Origin: a virus
DNA: 36,734 nucleotides
Reading direction: 5' to 3' (one strand)
IMG/VR virus record: IMGVR_UViG_3300020045_005387
Span: 1 to 36,734 of that record
Position numbers and translations under genes: made by a program. The notes under the pieces were generated by a model, which was not told the origin of the DNA, did no database searches, and saw only the letters and a program-made list of their open reading frames with translations. Within the stretch, counting starts at the first letter, position 1. The number at the start of each line of letters is the position of its first letter. Positions 6,324 to 36,734 of the stretch are shown here, piece by piece.

Positions 6324-8575
6324 TGTTTGCAAGCTTATACATCGGTAATGACAAATTAGATTTATTCAAGGACGAATCCATTGAGTTGTCTTCAAGTGTT
6401 GCTAACATAAATGACATCACAAAGAACATGACTGACTATTCTAAGTCTTTTACTGTTCCGGCTACACATGCTAACAATATTATTTTTAAACATTATTATA
6501 ATGCTAATATTGACAATGCTTTTGACGCAAGGATTAAGCACTCAGGCAGAATTGAATTATACGGACTTCCTTTTAAGACAGGAAAATGGACTTTAAATAA
6601 AGTAAGTGTAAAGCAAGGCAAACCAAGTTCGTACACTATTAACTTTGTAGGTAACTTAGTTTCTCTTAAAGATAAATTAAAAAACTATGAATTAAAAGAC
6701 TTAGACCTTTCTGCCTACAATCACAATTACAACCCAACAAATGTAAAAACAGGATTAACTTCGTCTTTATTTAGTGGGGCAATAGTATATAATTTATTTG
6801 CTAAAAAACAATTGTATTATCGTTCTGGTAGTGAAAATATTAACACAGCAACACTTGCGAATATAGCTTATACGGGTGGGGCAAACACTGGAGTTAATTG
6901 GGATTTATTAAAACCTTCCATTCAATTGATTAAAATAATTGAAGCAATTGAAACAGATTTTAATATAACTTTTAGCCGTGATTTCTTTGGAACGTCTCAA
7001 TTTCAAAACCTATACCTATGGGCGAATAATTCAGCAACTCTAGTAAATAAAAATGAAGTAAGGATAGATTTTACAAACATTGGTACTATTGGAGCGAATG
7101 CGGGTACAATGGATTTAGTAGAAGATACTTTTACAGCAGGAGGAAAAAGGATTTACGGACTTGTTAGAATTACACCAAGTGCAGGCTATGAAAATGTTAC
7201 TTATAAAATCGAAAGAAAAATAGACGGTAATCCTTGGAATTCTTATTCAGATCTGGATGGTACCACAGAGACATATTATAAAATTGACAGGAATACAGGT
7301 AATAAACATTCTTGGTACGTTACATCAAATGAAGAATTTAAATTTACATCAAGGCTTACAATTGAATTTTTTTACGAATCTTATAATGGAGTTGCTGATT
7401 TTCCAGAGCAAACAATATCTGGGCAGTTAAATGTAGCAATGAACTTCCCCAAATTAAAACTGATTGACTTCTTAAATGGATTGTTTAAGATGTTTAAATT
7501 AGTTGTTATTGCGGATGATTATGACAATATTTATATAGATACATTTAACAATTATTATGCATCAGGAGGCGTTTATAATATATCAAAATATGTGAAGACA
7601 GATACATTAGATGTATCAAAGGGCAATCTTTTAAATGAAATTAACTTCTTGTTCAAAGAACCAAAGACTTTATTAAATAGTCAATTCAAAATAAATACAG
7701 GACAAGGTTATGGGGATGAATCTACTTTGCTTACAGATGACGGGACACCATCAGGGATACCATTAGAAGGGGAAAGTTTATCAATCGAAGTGCCATTTGA
7801 GCAAATAATATACGAAAGGTTAATAGATTTAAACGGTAACGCACTTACAAATATTATGTATGGTGGAATTTTTAACGACAAGATAGAACCAGTTAGCCCA
7901 GACGTTCATATATTTTATAATATTAATACAGCAATAGGTAGTAAAACAATAGGTTTTATTGATGATTTAGGAGTTAGAACGCAGTTAAGTGGAAACATAA
8001 ACACACCGTCTCACTCAGTAGACTTTACTTTGCCAGAGTACAATCTAAATTTCGGAATAGAAAATAATGAGTGGAATAATTCGGCAAGTGAAAACACATT
8101 ATATTTAAACTATTACAAGAATTATATAGAATCAATATTTAACATAAAGAGAAGAAGTTTTAGTTTAAAAGCTATTTTACCATTACGTATTTTATTGAAG
8201 CTGCAATTAAATGATGTACTTGAAATTAAGAATAACTTTTATAGGATTGACAATTATTCTTTAAATTTATTAGACAGAGAAATAACACTTAATCTTATAA
8301 ATTCATTCGACTCAGTACTTGGAGCAATGAGTACTTTAATAACCGCATTGTTTGCAGATAACACAGCGCAAGTGCAGTCTGTTTATGTTAACAATTTAGG
8401 AAATCCGTTGTTTGATGTTGATGGAGCTACTTGGCTGGAGTTGACATATGAGGGTAATAATGTATTCTATACTTTTTTAGAAAATACAACAGGATTAGAC
8501 AGAACTACAAATACAACTATTACAAACACGGAAACGTTAGAAGTAATTGAAATATTAGTAACACAATACGCTTAA
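6323..8575 (+). CDS. Putative tail tip/baseplate structural protein (750 aa)
   Basis: Large protein in the tail module. The N-terminus (LYIGNDKLDLFKDESIELSSSV...FTVPATHANN) is typical of tail-tip proteins. Confidence 0.45.
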   Translation: MFASLYIGNDKLDLFKDESIELSSSVANINDITKNMTDYSKSFTVPATHANNIIFKHYYNANIDNAFDARIKHSGRIELYGLPFKTGKWTLNKVSVKQGKPSSYTINFVGNLVSLKDKLKNYELKDLDLSAYNHNYNPTNVKTGLTSSLFSGAIVYNLFAKKQLYYRSGSENINTATLANIAYTGGANTGVNWDLLKPSIQLIKIIEAIETDFNITFSRDFFGTSQFQNLYLWANNSATLVNKNEVRIDFTNIGTIGANAGTMDLVEDTFTAGGKRIYGLVRITPSAGYENVTYKIERKIDGNPWNSYSDLDGTTETYYKIDRNTGNKHSWYVTSNEEFKFTSRLTIEFFYESYNGVADFPEQTISGQLNVAMNFPKLKLIDFLNGLFKMFKLVVIADDYDNIYIDTFNNYYASGGVYNISKYVKTDTLDVSKGNLLNEINFLFKEPKTLLNSQFKINTGQGYGDESTLLTDDGTPSGIPLEGESLSIEVPFEQIIYERLIDLNGNALTNIMYGGIFNDKIEPVSPDVHIFYNINTAIGSKTIGFIDDLGVRTQLSGNINTPSHSVDFTLPEYNLNFGIENNEWNNSASENTLYLNYYKNYIESIFNIKRRSFSLKAILPLRILLKLQLNDVLEIKNNFYRIDNYSLNLLDREITLNLINSFDSVLGAMSTLITALFADNTAQVQSVYVNNLGNPLFDVDGATWLELTYEGNNVFYTFLENTTGLDRTTNTTITNTETLEVIEILVTQYA

Positions 8576-22397: not shown

Positions 22398-22425
22398 AAA
22401 CCACTTTAATTAGTGGTTTTTTTAT
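22398..22425 (+). terminator. Rho-independent terminator ending the late operon
   Basis: aaaccact-ttaatt-agtggttt followed by tttttt. Confidence 0.8.
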
Positions 22426-22435
22426 ACTTACAAGT

Positions 22436-22496
22436 GTTAAATATATGTTAAAATGAAATAAAATAGTTTCTAATTATTATATGTTTTGTATATTTG
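22436..22496 (+). promoter_or_regulatory. Promoter module P1: tandem GTTAAA repeats plus the -7 box TATATTTG
   Basis: GTTAAA at 22436 and GTTAAAA at 22447 (11-bp phasing). TATATTTG at 22489 is exactly 42 bp after the second repeat. Confidence 0.65.
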
Positions 22497-22532
22497 AACT
22501 CAGATAAATTTTAATAGATAAAATAAACAAAA

Positions 22533-22739
22533 ATGAATAGTATAGTATTTGTATATTTTAAAGACGGAAAAATAAAAACCCTTGATGTTGAACATGGGAA
22601 ACCTGACCACGAAAAAATGATAAATGATGGTTGGAAACATACATCAACTGTAAATGCAAGTGTTTTTATAGAACAATTATTTAACGATGTACCCGATTGC
22701 GAGCTAAGGAAATCAATTCAGTCGTTAGTAATAATTTAG
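22533..22739 (+). CDS. Hypothetical protein (68 aa), first ORF of the cassette-like array
   Basis: ORF track. Confidence 0.6.
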   Translation: MNSIVFVYFKDGKIKTLDVEHGKPDHEKMINDGWKHTSTVNASVFIEQLFNDVPDCELRKSIQSLVII

Positions 22740-22749
22740 CAATTAGCGG

Positions 22750-22876
22750 TAACGTTTTGCGCATATATGATGTTGCGTAAAAATAAAACCGAATTTCCGA
22801 TTAATCACAGATTAAAACAAATACAAACCAATTTATAAATTGAGCCTAATCTAGCAATAGCATATATGCGCTGTTA
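22750..22876 (+). repeat. attC-like structured element A (127 nt)
   Basis: TAACG 22750, then arm GCGCATATATG 22759-22769 pairing with CATATATGCGC 22861-22871, TTGC/GCAA, and TGTTA 22872-22876. Confidence 0.75.
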
Positions 22877-22911
22877 GGGTGCGTAGTGGATAATTGAAAC
22901 AAAAATAACTT

Positions 22912-23184
22912 ATGGAAACATTTAATATTGATAATGAAATTTTATCAAAACTAAACGGTGTTAAAAATGAATGCTCTGATTATTTGGAAGAATTGAGAAA
23001 AAGAAAAACAATTATTCTAAACTTAAATAATGAAGAGAACAATTCTAAATCAGCCCTAGAGTTTAAAGAATGGAAAATTAAAAACTATAAAGAAATGGTT
23101 AAAAAAAGTGACGATAATTTATTTTCACGAAAAGGAGATCTTATTTTGCAACTAGAAGAATTATTAACTGATTTAAAAAAATAG
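22912..23184 (+). CDS. Hypothetical coiled-coil protein (90 aa)
   Basis: ORF track. Confidence 0.6.
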   Translation: METFNIDNEILSKLNGVKNECSDYLEELRKRKTIILNLNNEENNSKSALEFKEWKIKNYKEMVKKSDDNLFSRKGDLILQLEELLTDLKK

Positions 23185-23189
23185 AAATT

Positions 23190-23528
23190 ATGGGATGTTA
23201 TATTTATATTAACGAAAATGAACAAAAAAGCAAAAGAACTGTAGAAGACAAGGAATTGAATGAATTGCTTCAAGAAGCTCTTAAATACGATAAAACTATA
23301 ATGCTTTCGTCTTATTCTATTTATGAAAAGAAATCTTTATTTGACAAGAAAAAAGCAATTGTACATTACTCTTTATATCACGAGATTTTCAACAATAAAG
23401 GCGAATCTATGATGGAGGCAAGACAACAAATTTCAGGAAGTGGTAAAAAAGAGATTGTGTCTGCTTATTTATACGGAATTATTAACGGTGCAAATGTTGA
23501 TAAATTATCTTATGAAAACGAAATGTAG
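23190..23528 (+). CDS. Hypothetical protein (112 aa)
   Basis: ORF track. Confidence 0.6.
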   Translation: MGCYIYINENEQKSKRTVEDKELNELLQEALKYDKTIMLSSYSIYEKKSLFDKKKAIVHYSLYHEIFNNKGESMMEARQQISGSGKKEIVSAYLYGIINGANVDKLSYENEM

Positions 23529-23532
23529 CTGT

Positions 23533-23547
23533 TGTTATGCCTAGTAC
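23533..23547 (+). repeat. Orphan 3' half-site B (TGTTATGCCTAGTAC) with no convincing paired stem upstream
   Basis: It has the same TGTTA core and downstream TAGTACGG motif as the full elements. It is complementary to the 5' flank of element C. Confidence 0.55.
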
Positions 23548-23585
23548 GGAAAAAGTAAATATTAACTAAATAAATTATAAACAAA

Positions 23586-23861
23586 ATGAATGTATCAAAA
23601 GAAGTAGCTGGTTTACGTAAAATTTATGATAAACTACAAGCAAAGCTCGAAAAAGAACAAATAAGATTAGACCAGAGAGATCAATATTACGGTGAACGTT
23701 CTGAAAAATGGCAAGAAAGCAAAAAAGGATTAGACTATGAAGCTGATTCAAGTATTTTAGGAAATGATTTAGAAAACTTTGAACAGGAATTATCTAATCT
23801 TGATGACGTAATTACTGAAATTGCATCAATAGGAGAAAGTTCTTTTGATTCAATTTCGTAG
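23586..23861 (+). CDS. Hypothetical acidic coiled-coil protein (91 aa)
   Basis: ORF track. Confidence 0.6.
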   Translation: MNVSKEVAGLRKIYDKLQAKLEKEQIRLDQRDQYYGERSEKWQESKKGLDYEADSSILGNDLENFEQELSNLDDVITEIASIGESSFDSIS

Positions 23862-23870
23862 TATTAGGCA

Positions 23871-23996
23871 TAACGGTTCGCTAGTATGAAACGGGATGGA
23901 TTAGCAATCCTAGACCATCCCAAAGCGGAATCAAACCAAATACACACCAGTAATCAAATTAATCACCAATACCGTACTGTTTTATACTAGCTGTTA
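23871..23996 (+). repeat. attC-like structured element C (126 nt)
   Basis: TAACG 23871, then arm GCTAGTATGAAAC 23880-23892 pairing with GTTTTATACTAGC 23979-23991 (one G-T), and TGTTA 23992-23996. An inner hairpin is formed by gggatgg and ccatccc. Confidence 0.75.
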
Positions 23997-24030
23997 TAAG
24001 AAGTACGGATAATTAAATAAAAACGAAATT

Positions 24031-24231
24031 ATGGAAAGAGAAAATTATTTACTAAGCAAAATACCTAAAGGATTAGATTATGATTCTAAATACGGAGATA
24101 ATTTTAATAAATACGCTAGATATATGGGTAATGGTGTTTATTCTTGGAAAGGAATACACGCAACAGACACAAGAATATTGTTTTTAACAGGAGTTCTAAT
24201 TAGCGAAAAAGTTCATTTTAAGCAGGAATAG
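24031..24231 (+). CDS. Hypothetical protein (66 aa)
   Basis: ORF track. Confidence 0.6.
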   Translation: MERENYLLSKIPKGLDYDSKYGDNFNKYARYMGNGVYSWKGIHATDTRILFLTGVLISEKVHFKQE

Positions 24232-24242
24232 AGTATTACTTA

Positions 24243-24326
24243 TAACGGTTGCGCTTGGTGCAGGTTGCTAGCAGGGATTTGAACCGAAGAACAAAAGTTG
24301 TGGCAACTTGCTCCAAACGCTTGTTA
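24243..24326 (+). repeat. attC-like structured element D (84 nt)
   Basis: TAACG 24243, then arm 24251-24268 pairing with 24303-24320 (16 of 18 positions, including one G-T), and TGTTA 24322-24326. Confidence 0.75.
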
Positions 24327-24361
24327 GGGATATACCACGAATTACTAATCAATTAAAAATT

Positions 24362-24718
24362 ATGAAAATGAATAGAGTAATAAAATTCAGAGCATTTGAT
24401 AAATTAAACAATAAAATGTTTTTTTGGGAATTACCAAATTTTGATAGCAAACACGCATCACATTATGACAATTTGACGCAATTTACTGGCTTGGTTGATA
24501 GAAATGGAGTTGATATTTATGAAGGGGATATTTTGTGGAGATATGAATCTACTGGAGCAAAAATAAAATCATTTTGTGAAATTATTTATGATAAAGATAG
24601 ATTTATACCCAAGTGGATAACTATATCTTGGTTTAATGATTATCTAAGAAATCACGCAAAACACCTAAGTGTAATAGGTAATATTTATCAAAACCCTGAA
24701 TTATTATCCACAAACTAG
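24362..24718 (+). CDS. YopX family protein
   Basis: KFRAFDKLNNKMF...LTQFTGLVDRNGVDIYEGDIL...VIGNIYQNPELL. ATG 24362 is preferred, because the track start at 24308 lies inside element D. Confidence 0.85.
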   Translation: MKMNRVIKFRAFDKLNNKMFFWELPNFDSKHASHYDNLTQFTGLVDRNGVDIYEGDILWRYESTGAKIKSFCEIIYDKDRFIPKWITISWFNDYLRNHAKHLSVIGNIYQNPELLSTN

Positions 24719-24729
24719 GCGGTTATCCC

Positions 24730-24857
24730 TAACGGATGGTGCTTGTCTCAGTGGCTAAAATTCAAGACCCAAGCACAACCGATAAATCCTAATTAATCCC
24801 GCCAGCGGTTTTTCCGAAGGAAAAAACGATACAAGCCATTGATACAAGCACGTGTTA
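24730..24857 (+). repeat. attC-like structured element E (128 nt)
   Basis: TAACG 24730, then arm 24740-24756 pairing with 24834-24850 (16 of 17 positions, including one G-T), and TGTTA 24853-24857. An inner hairpin is tttttcc-gaa-ggaaaaa. Confidence 0.75.
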
Positions 24858-24903
24858 CCATCATACCACGTAACATATTTTTTAACTAATTAAATTATAA
24901 AAA

Positions 24904-25326
24904 ATGAAATTAAAGATTAAAAAAGAAGTTGAAGTAGAAATAAAAACACTTCACGTAAGAGCAGGAGTAAGATATTGGGAAGATGCAACAGTTGACGGAA
25001 TTGAAGACAATGACGGAAAATTAATTCCTTGCAGAGTTATCGATGAAGAAGATTGGCTTCCTGTAATAGAAATCGAAACGGGTAAAATTATCAACTGGAA
25101 ACAAGGAGTTACTGCTGATATTCATTATAAAGTTTGCGATGATGGAGATTATTATTTACTCGATGAAAATGACGACGAAGTGGTGCATTTAAACGGATAT
25201 GTTCCAAAAACTTTATGTCCTGAAGAAAATGGATATGGTGATTATATCATTATGAAAGTTGATGCAGAAGGACAAATTAATAATTGGAAATTTAACCTTT
25301 CAGATTTTACTGAAGACGAAGATTAA
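24904..25326 (+). CDS. Strongly acidic hypothetical protein (140 aa)
   Basis: ORF track. Asp/Glu-rich throughout and ends in TEDED. Confidence 0.65.
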   Translation: MKLKIKKEVEVEIKTLHVRAGVRYWEDATVDGIEDNDGKLIPCRVIDEEDWLPVIEIETGKIINWKQGVTADIHYKVCDDGDYYLLDENDDEVVHLNGYVPKTLCPEENGYGDYIIMKVDAEGQINNWKFNLSDFTEDED

Positions 25327-25348
25327 CCGCAATATTGGCGGTTGATGG

Positions 25349-25474
25349 TAACGTTATCAGGCTTGCAGAAGTGGCAAAAAAGCAAGCCTTAATTTTCGAT
25401 TTTACCAAAACATTATAGACACAAAAACAACTTTAAATTAAACCTGAACTTGCCATTTTTGCAAACCTGTGTTA
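25349..25474 (+). repeat. attC-like structured element F (126 nt)
   Basis: TAACG 25349, then arm 25359-25377 pairing with 25450-25468 (18 of 19 positions, including two G-T), and TGTTA 25470-25474. Confidence 0.75.
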
Positions 25475-25507
25475 GCATTAGTGCGGTTCTTTAAAACTGA
25501 ATTTATT

Positions 25508-25723
25508 ATGAGTGAAGAATTTATTAAAGAAGCTAAAAACTTCAAAAAACAAATGAAATGGTGTGCAATAATTTCTTGGTTCGCAACAGCCTTTTTAACA
25601 TATAAAGCATCTGATAAAATTGATGATTGGGGAATTATAATATTTGGAGCAATTGTTTTTACAATTATTTATTTCAATATGAGTAAAAATATAAGTTCTT
25701 ATGAAAACCAATCGCAGCATTGA
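25508..25723 (+). CDS. Small membrane protein (71 aa, two TM segments)
   Basis: MSEEFIKEAKNFKKQMKWCAIISWFATAFL...GIIIFGAIVFTIIYF. ATG 25508 is preferred, because the track start at 25469 lies inside element F. Confidence 0.6.
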   Translation: MSEEFIKEAKNFKKQMKWCAIISWFATAFLTYKASDKIDDWGIIIFGAIVFTIIYFNMSKNISSYENQSQH

Positions 25724-25726
25724 TGC

Positions 25727-25855
25727 TAACGATGGGTGATATAAGAGGATTTTCGGAATAATAAATCCCTATGCTACCCTCATGAATGTTGCTACCAAGT
25801 ACAAACAAATTTTTAAATTAATCACAATGCCGAAAATCGCTTATATCATGTGTTA
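25727..25855 (+). repeat. attC-like structured element G (129 nt)
   Basis: TAACG 25727, then arm 25737-25756 pairing with 25830-25848 (9 bp, a small internal loop, then 8 bp), and TGTTA 25851-25855. Confidence 0.75.
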
Positions 25856-25883: not shown

Positions 25884-26120
25884 ATGGACGAACAAATTAA
25901 ACAACAGTTAAGACAGAAAAAAATTAGGGAAATGAAAAACCCGGCTATCTTAATGAATGATATTGATTTTGAAAACTTTAAAAAAGAAGTTGAATCAAAA
26001 GTAGTTAATTTTAAAGTGGGCGAAAATCCAACTTATGAAGGTATTCCGATAAAAGTAAATGAATTTATAGAAAAGGGAAATATTATTGTTTACGACGATG
26101 TTGCGCAAGCTGTTCCCTAA
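25884..26120 (+). CDS. Hypothetical protein (78 aa)
   Basis: ORF track. Its stop codon is embedded in the half-site TTCCCTAAC. Confidence 0.6.
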   Translation: MDEQIKQQLRQKKIREMKNPAILMNDIDFENFKKEVESKVVNFKVGENPTYEGIPIKVNEFIEKGNIIVYDDVAQAVP

Positions 26121-26121
26121 C
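26113..26121 (+). repeat. Orphan 5' half-site H (TTCCCTAAC) overlapping the stop codon. It marks the array boundary.
   Basis: Perfect reverse complement of GTTAGGGAA at 25852-25860. I could find no stem or 3' TGTTA partner downstream. Confidence 0.5.
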
Positions 26122-27762: not shown

Positions 27763-28323
27763 ATGATTGACAATTTAGAATTATGGAAAAAGGTAGAAAA
27801 GACAAATCCAAAATACACAAAAAAAGCAAATGTAAAAGGCAACTTAATAACTGCCATATCTCCACAATATCAAATTAAAAATGTAACTGAACAGTTCGGT
27901 TCTTATGGAAAAACTTGGGGGTTTAAATCGCTTGATTTTGATTATACTTTAACAGAAAGTTTAGGCTTGGTTGTTTTACACGCTATTTTTTTCTATCCAG
28001 AGGGTGAGTTTCCTATTAAAAACGCTCAATCTATTTTTATGGATAACGCAAGGACTAAAATTGATGATAACTTTGCTAAAAAATTAGAAACTGATACTTT
28101 GACAAAAGCAATATCAAAACTTGGTTTTAATGCTGACATTTTCATGGGATTATTTGATGATGTTAAATATCTGGCTGAGGTTACAAAAGAATTTTCTGAA
28201 CCAAAACCACTTGCAACGGAAGAAGTTTTGATTAAAGCTAAATCAGTTAATGCGACTATTGAACAGATAAAATCAAAATATACATTAACCCATGAACAAG
28301 AAAAAAGCTATGGAATCCAATAG
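27763..28323 (+). CDS. Putative Rad52/Sak-like single-strand annealing protein
   Basis: The N-terminal pattern WKKVEKTNPKYTKKANVKGNLITAISPQYQIKNVTEQFGSYGKTWGF resembles Rad52-family phage annealases. Confidence 0.45.
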   Translation: MIDNLELWKKVEKTNPKYTKKANVKGNLITAISPQYQIKNVTEQFGSYGKTWGFKSLDFDYTLTESLGLVVLHAIFFYPEGEFPIKNAQSIFMDNARTKIDDNFAKKLETDTLTKAISKLGFNADIFMGLFDDVKYLAEVTKEFSEPKPLATEEVLIKAKSVNATIEQIKSKYTLTHEQEKSYGIQ

Positions 28324-28868: not shown

Positions 28869-28894
28869 ACCCCTTAATAAAATAAGGGGTTTTT
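28869..28894 (+). terminator. Rho-independent terminator
   Basis: acccctta-ataaaa-taaggggt followed by tttt. Confidence 0.75.
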
Positions 28895-28955
28895 GTTAAA
28901 CTTATGTTAAAATGAAATAAATTAATTGCATTTCTAAATATATGTTGTAGATTTG
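28895..28955 (+). promoter_or_regulatory. Promoter module P2: tandem GTTAAA repeats plus the -7 box TAGATTTG
   Basis: GTTAAA at 28895 and GTTAAAA at 28906. TAGATTTG at 28948 is 42 bp downstream. The module is near-identical to P1 through ...TTTGAACTCA. Confidence 0.65.
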
Positions 28956-28983
28956 AACTCATATAACAATAAAAAAAAACGTG

Positions 28984-31215: not shown

Positions 31216-31334
31216 AAAAGCAATCAAATTTAGTAAGAATAAAAAGAGTACTAACGTTTTACGCTAAACGAGGCGTTAACTCAGAACGTGTAAATAAAAT
31301 TCACAGGAAAATTTTAACAAATTTATTTAGTTAA
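31212..31334 (+). CDS. Small basic hypothetical protein (40 aa)
   Basis: My own translation gives MKKQSNLVRIKRVLTFYAKRGVNSERVNKIHRKILTNLFS. Confidence 0.3.
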   Translation: MKKQSNLVRIKRVLTFYAKRGVNSERVNKIHRKILTNLFS

Positions 31335-31342
31335 AATTGAAA

Positions 31343-31356
31343 TAAGTTTTGTACGT
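31343..31356 (+). promoter_or_regulatory. Promoter -7 box GTTTTGTACGTTTG upstream of the primase gene
   Basis: TACGTTTG matches TAnnTTTG. It shares the GTTTTGTAnnTTTG context with P1. Confidence 0.5.
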
Positions 31357-31466
31357 TTGCTTTATAGTAATCTACCACTTACGATAAGATATTTTAGTGT
31401 AAAAACTAAACCGACAAATCCGTTAATAGTGTGGTAGCTGTTAGCGGATTTTGTCATTATAAAAAT

Positions 31467-33719: not shown

Positions 33720-33720
33720 A

Positions 33721-33954
33721 TGCACGGTGTGCACGCCACGTGCACGGTAAAATATCAACGTTTACAGGGGTTAACGACGAAAATCGTGCAAAATGCACGG
33801 TGCACGGTAAATAATAATAAAAAAAATAAATAAAAATAAATAAATATTTTATAATCCAACCGTGCAAAATGCACGATTTAGGCTGTTAGGGCGCATAAAC
33901 ATTGAAAAACAACCGTGCACCAACCGTGCAAAAACACTATGCACGAACCGTGCA
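33721..33954. promoter_or_regulatory. Putative replication origin: TGCACGGT/ACCGTGCA iterons, two CGTGCAAAATGCACG palindromes and an AT-only unwinding tract
   Basis: Forward 8-mers at 33721, 33741, 33794 and 33801, with a variant at 33730. Reverse 8-mers at 33859, 33912, 33923 and 33947. Palindromes at 33785-33799 and 33861-33875 flank the A/T-only run 33809-33857. Confidence 0.75.
33772..33888 (+). repeat. attC-like element O, enclosing the origin AT-rich core (117 nt)
   Basis: TAACG 33772, then arm AAATCGTGCA 33781-33790 pairing with TGCACGATTT 33870-33879, and TGTTAGGG from 33884. Same architecture as elements A-G. Confidence 0.5.
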
Positions 33955-35468: not shown

Positions 35469-35589
35469 ACAACCAACAATCGACGAAATAATAAAAGAAC
35501 GTAATCAGTTGTATGTAACTGGAACAAATCCAAACAGATTAAAAGAACTGATAGAAAAGATTGATTATTTCTTTTTTGGAATATGTTAA
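35455..35589 (+). CDS. Small hypothetical protein (44 aa)
   Basis: My own translation gives MKKPKQPTIDEIIKERNQLYVTGTNPNRLKELIEKIDYFFFGIC. Confidence 0.35.
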   Translation: MKKPKQPTIDEIIKERNQLYVTGTNPNRLKELIEKIDYFFFGIC

Positions 35590-35645
35590 AATTATGTTAA
35601 AACGAAATTAATGTATTGCGGAACTAAATTAGTGTCGTATATTTG
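35585..35645 (+). promoter_or_regulatory. Promoter module P3: tandem GTTAAA repeats plus the -7 box TATATTTG
   Basis: GTTAAA at 35585 and GTTAAAA at 35596. TATATTTG at 35638 is 42 bp downstream. Confidence 0.65.
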
Positions 35646-35695
35646 TATAAGAGTTAAGGAAGTGATTTACACGGCAAACTCAAAAACCAACCACT

Positions 35696-36413: not shown

Positions 36414-36734
36414 ATGAAAACACCAACATTAGAAGAGCTTAAAGAGTATTTTAAAGATGCTGAAATTGTAAGAGAATCAACTTTTAAAGGAAGGTATTTT
36501 AAAATAAATTTGGATGAAGTTGAAGAAACTGCACTTGGTAATTGGATTCAAGATGATTACTATTTATACAATAAAGGTATTGGTTTTGCTGAAATTATAT
36601 CTTATAAAGAAGTTGAAAAGCCAATATTTCAAATATTTGACGAAGAAGAAAAAAAATGGTATGATTTACACGACCAAAATCTATACAGAATTAAACCAAA
36701 GACAAACTACGACAAAGAAATTGAAGCTTTGCAA
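36414..36734 (+). CDS. Hypothetical protein, 5' portion of the gene that wraps across the window ends (continues at 122..175)
   Basis: ATG 36414 (MKTPTLEELKEYFKDAEIV...) is open to the window end and stays in phase with 2..175. Confidence 0.7.
   Translation, partial: MKTPTLEELKEYFKDAEIVRESTFKGRYFKINLDEVEETALGNWIQDDYYLYNKGIGFAEIISYKEVEKPIFQIFDEEEKKWYDLHDQNLYRIKPKTNYDKEIEALQ
36614..36734. repeat. Second copy of the 121-bp terminal repeat
   Basis: Identical to 1..121. An ORF reads continuously through the junction. Confidence 0.95.

Follow-up and report, generated by a model that had tools for sequence, protein, structure and literature searches.

We analyzed a family of structured intergenic elements in a phage genome deposited as virus record IMGVR_UViG_3300020045_005387; the window referred to below is the whole 36,734-nt stretch of this record. 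Six elements with the ends TAACG...TGTTA (A, C, D, E, F, and G) separate small open reading frames (ORFs) at the start of one operon, and most of their features point to attC-type recombination sites of gene cassettes. The scores given for them were obtained with R2, a covariance model built from 42 elements of other phages only, which included neither window sequence nor homologues of element F. The locus is organized as follows:

22398–22500, + strand: intrinsic terminator (22398–22419), followed by a promoter module whose −7 box is of the Bacteroidetes type (TATATTTG) and which starts the array operon
22533–22739, + strand: first operon gene, 68 aa, outside the variable part
22750–22876, + strand: attC-like element A, 127 nt, read as the bottom strand; R2 99.2 bits, E 3.5e-17, and fold
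22912–23861, + strand: cargo of cassette 1, three small ORFs with no function found (22912–23184, 23190–23528, and 23586–23861)
23528–23549, + strand: relic 3' end of a lost seventh element, recognized in the sequence itself (GCTGTTGTTATGCCTAGTACGG; cf. ..GCTGTTATAAGAAGTACGG downstream of element C)
23871–23996, + strand: attC-like element C, 126 nt; R2 73.5 bits, E 2.8e-12
24031–24231, + strand: cargo of cassette 2, 66-aa ORF with no function found
24243–24326, + strand: attC-like element D, short variant of 84 nt with a small loop; R2 40.5 bits, E 5.4e-06
24362–24718, + strand: cargo of cassette 3, YopX-family protein (Pfam PF09643, E 3.2e-23)
24730–24857, + strand: attC-like element E, 128 nt; R2 45.4 bits, E 6.3e-07
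24904–25326, + strand: cargo of cassette 4, 140-aa ORF with no function found
25349–25474, + strand: attC-like element F, 126 nt; R2 106.6 bits, E 1.3e-18
25508–25723, + strand: cargo of cassette 5, 71-aa membrane-like protein
25727–25855, + strand: attC-like element G, 129 nt; R2 73.1 bits, E 3.3e-12
25884–26120, + strand: cargo of cassette 6, 78-aa ORF with no function found
26118–26121, + strand: terminal TAAC half-site (CCCTAAC|TAATGGC) that closes the array and is not followed by a hairpin

The elements are situated between a stop codon and a start codon ~35 nt downstream. YopX was the sole function recognized among the cassette proteins of the window. The relic 3' end between two ORFs of cassette 1 suggests that two cassettes were fused once a site was lost.

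An initial annotation of this DNA had placed six elements with TAACG...TGTTA ends at the positions listed. When the window was searched with R2 (filters off, both strands), exactly these six were found, all on the + strand, with scores of 106.6–40.5 bits and E values from 1e-18 to 5e-6, while the next match had an E value of 0.44. Chance is not the explanation of the six elements. The bare pattern TAACG-N90-120-TGTTA was only mildly enriched in the window (9 occurrences vs. 3.7 expected), and the first pattern scan of viral sequences gave mostly chance matches; a stem filter was added, and further copies were gathered from IMG/VR contigs and from Muminvirus phages in GenBank. The lengths of A, C, D, E, F, and G were 127, 126, 84, 128, 126, and 129 nt, respectively, so that five of the six copies indeed fall within 126–129 nt; in the family as a whole the mode was 124–130 nt, with short variants of 65–95 nt. 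Model R1, trained without element D, also recovered this short copy (41 bits). The family is not confined to this genome: members were found in other phages and in bacterial arrays. The E = 0.44 match with R2 lies at 8516–8547 (− strand) inside a 750-aa ORF and reads like an ‘empty’ site (ATTACTTCTAACGTTTCC|GTGTTTGTAATAGT).

Covariation was assessed in 48 phage elements aligned by sequence only with MAFFT. TAACG and TGTTA were invariant in 48 of 48 elements and pair as 5 bp including a G.T; the consensus consists of this R helix (TAACG/TGTTA), a bulge of ~5 nt on the 5' side only, and a stem of ~15 bp. The compensatory covariation proposed in the initial annotation was borne out, with double changes in 14 of 20 pairs. 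Paired cells amounted to 93.3%, compared with 64.2% in shuffled alignments and 36–47% with slid partners, and double-change cells numbered 270 vs. 87 in shuffles; all of these figures are somewhat inflated, the 48 elements having been preselected by a stem filter of at least 11 bp. R2 is free of this circularity for the window copies, and therefore the R2 search is the unbiased check there.

In each of the six elements, the long-range stem begins 3–5 nt after TAACG and stops 0–2 nt before TGTTA. The stems had been described as unrelated in sequence; each does pair with its own partner, but a family consensus exists (..GCTTnnnGnnG.. / ..CnnnnAAAC..) with conserved non-Watson–Crick positions. 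Similarly, the interior does vary as was claimed, but it holds conserved motifs (AAATACAAA, TTAAATTAATCAC), and the unpaired spacer of the initial annotation is present, but as a one-sided bulge: mostly 3–6 nt after TAAC on the 5' side and 0–3 nt before GTTA. In classical attC sites, the spacer is unpaired on both sides.

The bottom strand of attC(aadA7) reads CTAACG...TTGTTAG (Qi et al. 2023, Table S3, PMC9892861), that is, it has the ends of the window elements; the + strand of the window is thus taken as the recombinogenic bottom strand, and the phage cassettes are consequently inverted relative to classical ones. The parallel with attC sites drawn in the initial annotation was extended by further features. 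As in integron attC sites, represented by attC(aadA7) and the Vibrio VCRs, the AAC...GTT core pairs as the R box, the L stem is conserved as structure with variable sequence, and the terminal loop is variable; a spacer follows the R box, but on one side only. The sizes (84–129 nt) fit the attC range of 57–141 nt, five of the six window elements being VCR-sized; the bottom strand is the better folder, the arrays are co-oriented, and crossover takes place within the core (G|TT, corresponding to AA|C on the bottom strand). The bacterial loci also resemble integrons in their attI-like junction, their divergent tyrosine recombinase, and their defence-gene cargo.

The elements were folded as single-stranded DNA (both strands) and as RNA, a check that had been proposed at the outset. 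As single-stranded DNA, the + strand was at least as stable as the − strand in all six elements, by just 0.3–2.6 kcal/mol; as RNA, z values were −1.8 to −3.9. Three stem positions are fixed as non-Watson–Crick pairs, C.A at position 5 and G.T at positions 11 and 14, and these were shared by the viral set and the two bacterial subsets; the scoring of stem positions treats G.T and A.C alike. The G.T wobbles on the TAACG→TGTTA strand become A.C mismatches on the opposite strand. Strand choice appears to be encoded by the conserved C.A mismatch and G.T wobbles in place of extrahelical bases. In phage arrays, 98% of coding bases were on the TAACG→TGTTA strand, whereas in bacterial arrays 79% were on the opposite one, which is the canonical integron orientation. 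Because the signature strand is antisense to the genes in bacteria, the asymmetry follows the DNA strand and not the transcript, which argues for a single-stranded DNA substrate; we infer that single-stranded DNA is what is recognized.

These data also bear on whether the elements are instead RNA elements of a polycistronic early mRNA (RNase III-type sites as in T7, stabilizers, or translational insulators), with only a secondary link to gene turnover. Their sense orientation in phages (98%), their placement between a stop codon and a start ~35 nt downstream, and the good RNA folding are in keeping with such a role, and the elements are not terminators, as no terminator-like hairpin with a T-run was found inside them; a second function of this kind in phages could explain the inverted orientation. 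However, a bacterial signature antisense to the genes is not selectable through mRNA there, no Rfam family was matched, and the TAAC junctions, the attI-like junction, and the recombinase are left unexplained. As the primary explanation, we consider an RNA function very unlikely.

As judged from comparisons with related phages, the cassettes actually turn over. Among Muminvirus genomes with 99.9% identity, ~9 end-points of indels or replacements were found, all of them in TAACG(TT), with merely 5–8 nt of common sequence. The gp008 cassette, for example, is present in mumin6-1 (..GCGGTTAACG|TTTGGTGGC..[element + gp008]..GCATAACG|TTATCAGGC..) and absent from mumin6-3 (..GCGGTTAACG|TTATCAGGC..). 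Replacements in mymlan and tooticki had both ends in the TAACG(TT) core, and filifjonk carried two insertions at the core, one of them at the hairpin-less terminal site TTATAAC|TACAATATT (TTATAAC|TACAAT). Since the junctions all lie in the TAACG core, the mobile unit is [G..hairpin..TGTTA - ORF(s) - ..TAAC]. The junctions were resolved to 4–8 nt, and this applies to the Muminvirus ends, to the F cassette described below, and to the conserved/variable boundary in bacteria. The half-site that closes the window array is analogous to the Muminvirus site TTATAAC|TACAAT and to ..AAC|TCACAAATA beside the bacterial recombinase.

A second comparison was provided by contig L245, which is 95% identical to the window up to position 22741 and again from ~26139. 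Between window positions 22742 and 26138, L245 holds a different array of seven elements with different genes. One cassette, composed of element F and the 71-aa ORF, is common to both; it is the fifth in the window and the first in L245, its ORF is ~88% identical, and the similarity stops at the next TAACG. Element F also has a counterpart in Flavobacterium Muminvirus phages (88.5% identity, beginning at TAACG). The proteins encoded upstream of element F and of its Muminvirus counterpart are unrelated and the neighboring genes differ; therefore, it is element F itself, not the upstream gene, that the two phages have in common.

Such exchange could in principle be ascribed to general, homologous recombination, the elements serving as hot spots through short homology with no dedicated enzyme. 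A precedent exists in the PeSL modules of T4-type phages, promoter/terminator composites recombining via sequence homology (PMC2839356, PMC4122927); like the elements studied here, these modules are repeated stem-loops that lie on either side of small accessory genes in hyperplastic regions and delimit gene indels between close relatives. The phage has no recombinase, an exonuclease is encoded by both the window phage and the Muminviruses, the elements have sequence motifs in common, and the edges of the array against L245 are not exactly at TAAC, all of which would agree with this explanation. However, in the 99.9%-identical genomes the junctions have only 5–8 nt in common, always TAACG(TT), next to unrelated stems, and this is too little for homologous exchange. 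The conserved structure, the mismatch positions, and the strand asymmetry indicate that the site is recognized in its folded form, and in bacteria the same sites adjoin a tyrosine recombinase as well as an attI-like junction. The elements also lack the terminator-like T-run hairpin and differ from PeSL modules in that their junctions have just TAACG/TGTTA in common, their stems covary, and a recombinase-linked bacterial counterpart exists. Hence, homologous exchange seems to us an unlikely basis of the turnover.

To trace the bacterial counterpart of the family, GTDB genomes were scanned for a pattern taken from a single 5'-arm subfamily (GCTTTGCGAGG). The scan gave 118 loci, almost all in Bacteroidota and some with arrays, including Flavobacterium, Riemerella, Empedobacter, Chitinophagaceae, Saprospiraceae, Sphingobacteriia, and Bacteroidales. 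A tyrosine recombinase was present inside the surrounding 8 kb in just 4 of these 118 attC-first loci; the association was clear only when starting from the recombinase. In this reverse search, the contigs of recombinase homologues were scanned with the phage-derived model, and 12 places were shown for five proteins, a small sample. Arrays were found directly beside the recombinase in L276 (nine matches), L278 (three matches), L281 (Niabella, three matches), and L277 (94.5 bits), and in L271 the sites flanked a restriction–modification (R-M) cassette. The linked recombinase had its best NCBIfam matches with TIGR02249 ‘integron integrase’ (two stretches, below the cut-off) and with XerA NF040815, and it was most similar to XerA (5hxy, E 3e-46).

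An identical recombinase, P0213, was encoded in four samples with a constant right flank and varying cargo on the left: CBASS-like genes, GmrSD, AlwI R-M, methyltransferases, or nothing. The boundary between conserved and variable sequence lies exactly at ..(T/C)AAC|TCACAAATATACGAAGTT.. (..AAC|TCACAAATATACGAAG), ~160 nt upstream of the recombinase gene. A recombinase with a constant flank and variable cargo at an AAC boundary has the anatomy of an integron platform, i.e., integrase, attI, and cassettes. The arrays of L277, L278, and L271 carried R-M systems, GmrSD, a CBASS-like SMODS/ThiF/JAB set, and an Erm-like rRNA methylase; judging by this cargo, the bacterial platforms are, like Vibrio superintegrons, stores of defence and resistance genes. 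A different arrangement was observed in L276 (5392–9625 of contig ERZ27275353 k141_1295917), where nine attC sites beside a chromosomal Xer-like recombinase have the phage-type orientation. Two of its cargo genes had 40% matches, one to a Muminvirus methyltransferase and the other to an ORF of a phage array, and a DnaG-like primase is encoded upstream; L276 may reflect the exchange of cassettes between phage and host, or else a phage-like element that integrated at attI.

Identical 126-nt elements, including the 14 nt after TGTTA, occurred across bacterial genera (L128/L135/L162 and L130/L138/L144; Aureispira and Halpernia; Riemerella, Empedobacter, and Bergeyella), which indicates recent horizontal spread of such cassettes. 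The commonest genes near bacterial elements include efflux, ABC-F, and phosphotransferase-like genes, and the cassettes spread in this way may carry resistance genes. Identity between genera, together with the inverted ends and the 88.5% identity of element F between unrelated phages with differing flanking genes, could also be expected of non-autonomous transposons resembling miniature inverted-repeat transposable elements, or of HUH/IS200-type transposase ends, spread through intergenic regions. However, no target-site duplications were found, the moving unit takes the downstream gene or genes along, the arrays are regular and co-oriented, no transposase was found in the window, and the neighboring enzyme in bacteria is a tyrosine recombinase; transposition of this type is thus highly improbable.

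Regarding the genome that carries the array, positions 1–130 of the window are identical to 36605–36734, and the identical ends indicate a complete phage genome of ~36.6 kb, circularly permuted or terminally redundant. Its GC content is ~31%, and the + strand carries all genes. The closest DNA matches in GenBank are Flavobacterium and Polaribacter phages, and the window phage is a Flavobacterium-type lytic phage. Its other recognized features are as follows:

962–1489: free-standing HNH homing endonuclease (NUMOD4 + HNH_3 + AP2)
2136: terminase
13359: portal, with tail genes also present
27763–28323: exonuclease
31431: primase-helicase
33902: helicase

The array sits at the start of an operon whose limits are the intrinsic terminators 22398–22419 and 28869–28890. 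No match at gathering score was obtained with Rfam in the whole window, and the tRNA scan was likewise empty. Searches against Pfam and PHROG, which covered most ORFs of at least 75 aa, revealed no integrase, transposase, or other recombinase in the window, only the HNH endonuclease, the exonuclease, the primase-helicase, and the helicase.

A regulatory module of ~60 nt (ATGTTAAAATGAAATAAA...TATATTTG/TAGATTTG) was present in three copies (22420–22500, 28895–28975, and 35590–35665). The first two copies follow intrinsic terminators called by the scan, and the third region (35469–35695) was read by eye only; the three modules resemble a family of promoters/operators specific to the phage, with a −7 box of the Bacteroidetes type. 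HNH/NUMOD4 endonucleases were also encoded in Muminvirus and Polaribacter phages with the same arrays, which may be a coincidence. Two further regions of the window were considered as copies of the element and rejected. A ‘seventh copy’ at 33772–33888 shares the ends and contains a 22-bp inverted repeat, but it scored only 7.7 bits with the family model. Between the primase-helicase and helicase genes (33720–33901), GTGCACGG iterons and a 45-nt A/T tract lie inside this 22-bp inverted repeat; on account of the iterons, the A/T tract, and the position between replication genes, the region was read as origin-like and is probably the replication origin. The second region, 31269–31445, starts with TAACGTTTT and had no model match.

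Taken together, it is likely that the six elements belong to a Bacteroidota-specific class of attC-type sites for site-specific recombination and divide the start of the phage early/accessory operon into six mobile cassettes recombined by a tyrosine recombinase, likely that of the host. A cassette would have the form [G - 3-5 nt bulge - stem - loop - stem - TGTTA - ~35-nt leader - ORF(s) - ..TAAC]. When single-stranded, the + strand would fold into a hairpin in which TAACG pairs with TGTTA as the R box, followed by the one-sided bulge and then by the stem with the C.A mismatch and two G.T wobbles, owing to which the opposite strand would fold poorly. The tyrosine recombinase would cut within TAAC and swap strands with another site, a bare TAAC, or an attI-like site, and strand exchange at TAAC would lead to the excision, insertion, or swapping of cassettes. 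The phage encodes no such enzyme; the catalyst would be supplied in trans and is likely the integron-like Xer-type recombinase of the host, which is found beside arrays of the same site family in Bacteroidota chromosomes. From the common site family, the positions of the junctions, and the anatomy of the bacterial platforms, we infer that the host recombinase may act on phage DNA.

Several observations weigh against this interpretation. No tyrosine recombinase was detected in the window with Pfam/PHROG (most ORFs of at least 75 aa) or by a phmmer search of its six-frame translation with the bacterial recombinase, and the phage encodes its own exonuclease, making homology-driven exchange possible. 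The outer edges of the window array do not coincide exactly with the core: similarity to L245 is lost ~10 nt upstream of the first TAACG and regained ~20 nt downstream of the last TAAC. The stem has no conserved extrahelical (bulged) bases and the spacer is one-sided; the phage orientation, with 98% of coding bases on the bottom-strand side, is the reverse of that of classical and bacterial cassettes. The linked recombinase aligns to VchIntIA (2a3v) in two pieces and skips approximately residues 203–243, the IntI-specific segment. Hardly any cargo is common to the phage and bacterial arrays that were sampled (in the first sample, weak methyltransferase similarity only), and the elements may have an additional RNA role in the phage. 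Finally, P12002L_attC1, the sole family member tested experimentally, was the only tested site without verified IntI1 recombinants (PMC9892861).

The latter site comes from a study in which attC clusters were predicted in 17 phages of 10,705 genomes, virulent phages included (Qi et al. 2023, PMC9892861). Two sites were called there in Polaribacter phage P12002L, and no Flavobacterium phage was listed; R2 found five members in P12002L, all on the gene strand. P12002L_attC1 (TAACG-GCTAC-stem-AT-TGTTA) has the architecture of the window elements, and the P12002L cluster of attC sites without an integrase (CALIN) likewise belongs to a lytic phage of a Flavobacteriia host, with sites between methyltransferase and small genes. 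The P12002L methyltransferase is close to the Muminvirus methyltransferase that follows the homologue of element F. More generally, the recognizable cargo is counter-defence-like, with several DNA methyltransferases in Muminvirus, P12002L, and L245; the window itself encodes mostly unassigned small proteins and YopX. The window has six sites in 3.1 kb and no integrase, which corresponds to a CALIN (at least two attC sites close together with no integrase nearby), an assignment that hinges on accepting the sites as attC.

Thus, attC clusters of few sites in virulent phages, including a Polaribacter phage, are already known from that study (Qi et al. 2023, PMC9892861), while cassette turnover, inverted orientation, and a recombinase partner in Bacteroidota were not reported in it. 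According to IntegronFinder 2.0, integrons are almost absent from Bacteroidetes, with one complete integron, in Salinibacter. In the searchable literature, to which most subscription journals do not belong, we found no description of such a Bacteroidota integron or of intergenic repeats in Flavobacterium phages, only Qi et al. 2023 and general integron papers. A relationship to Xer/dif modules (pdif) and archaeal XerA is indicated by the recombinase, which resembles XerA and scores on NF040815 ‘site-specific tyrosine recombinase/integron integrase’. The sites themselves, 84–129-nt hairpins in arrays, are unlike dif. Sites of the dif type are ~28 bp, double-stranded, and have no long hairpin. 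By mechanism and by most defining features, the finding belongs to the attC/cassette kind; it departs from integron attC sites in the one-sided bulge that replaces the two-sided unpaired spacer and in having no extrahelical bases, and from integrons in phage cassette genes inverted relative to attC, a phage without an integrase, and a linked bacterial recombinase without the IntI-specific domain.

Integrons are viewed as bacterial, mostly proteobacterial, devices. We tentatively propose, as a possibility that falls somewhat short of an even chance, that Bacteroidota hold a widespread integron-like system largely missed by current tools, in which the integrase is Xer-like and lacks the IntI-specific domain and the strand of attC is chosen via the one-sided bulge and the fixed C.A and G.T positions. 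Lytic phages would keep reverse-oriented cassette arrays of methyltransferases and small early genes, would rely on the recombinase of the host for the exchange of counter-defence genes, and might even insert themselves into its attI as one giant cassette; the L276 array beside the recombinase has the phage-type orientation and phage-like cargo. The system would be a natural attC/integrase variant without features thought essential for strand selection, namely extrahelical bases and the IntI I2 domain. The accessory region of a lytic phage appears to be organized by the logic of integron recombination, and matching host platforms store R-M and other defence genes; this would explain the precise exchange of small phage early genes and methyltransferases. 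If true, one site-specific system would serve as the common currency of both sides of the phage–host arms race in a major phylum.

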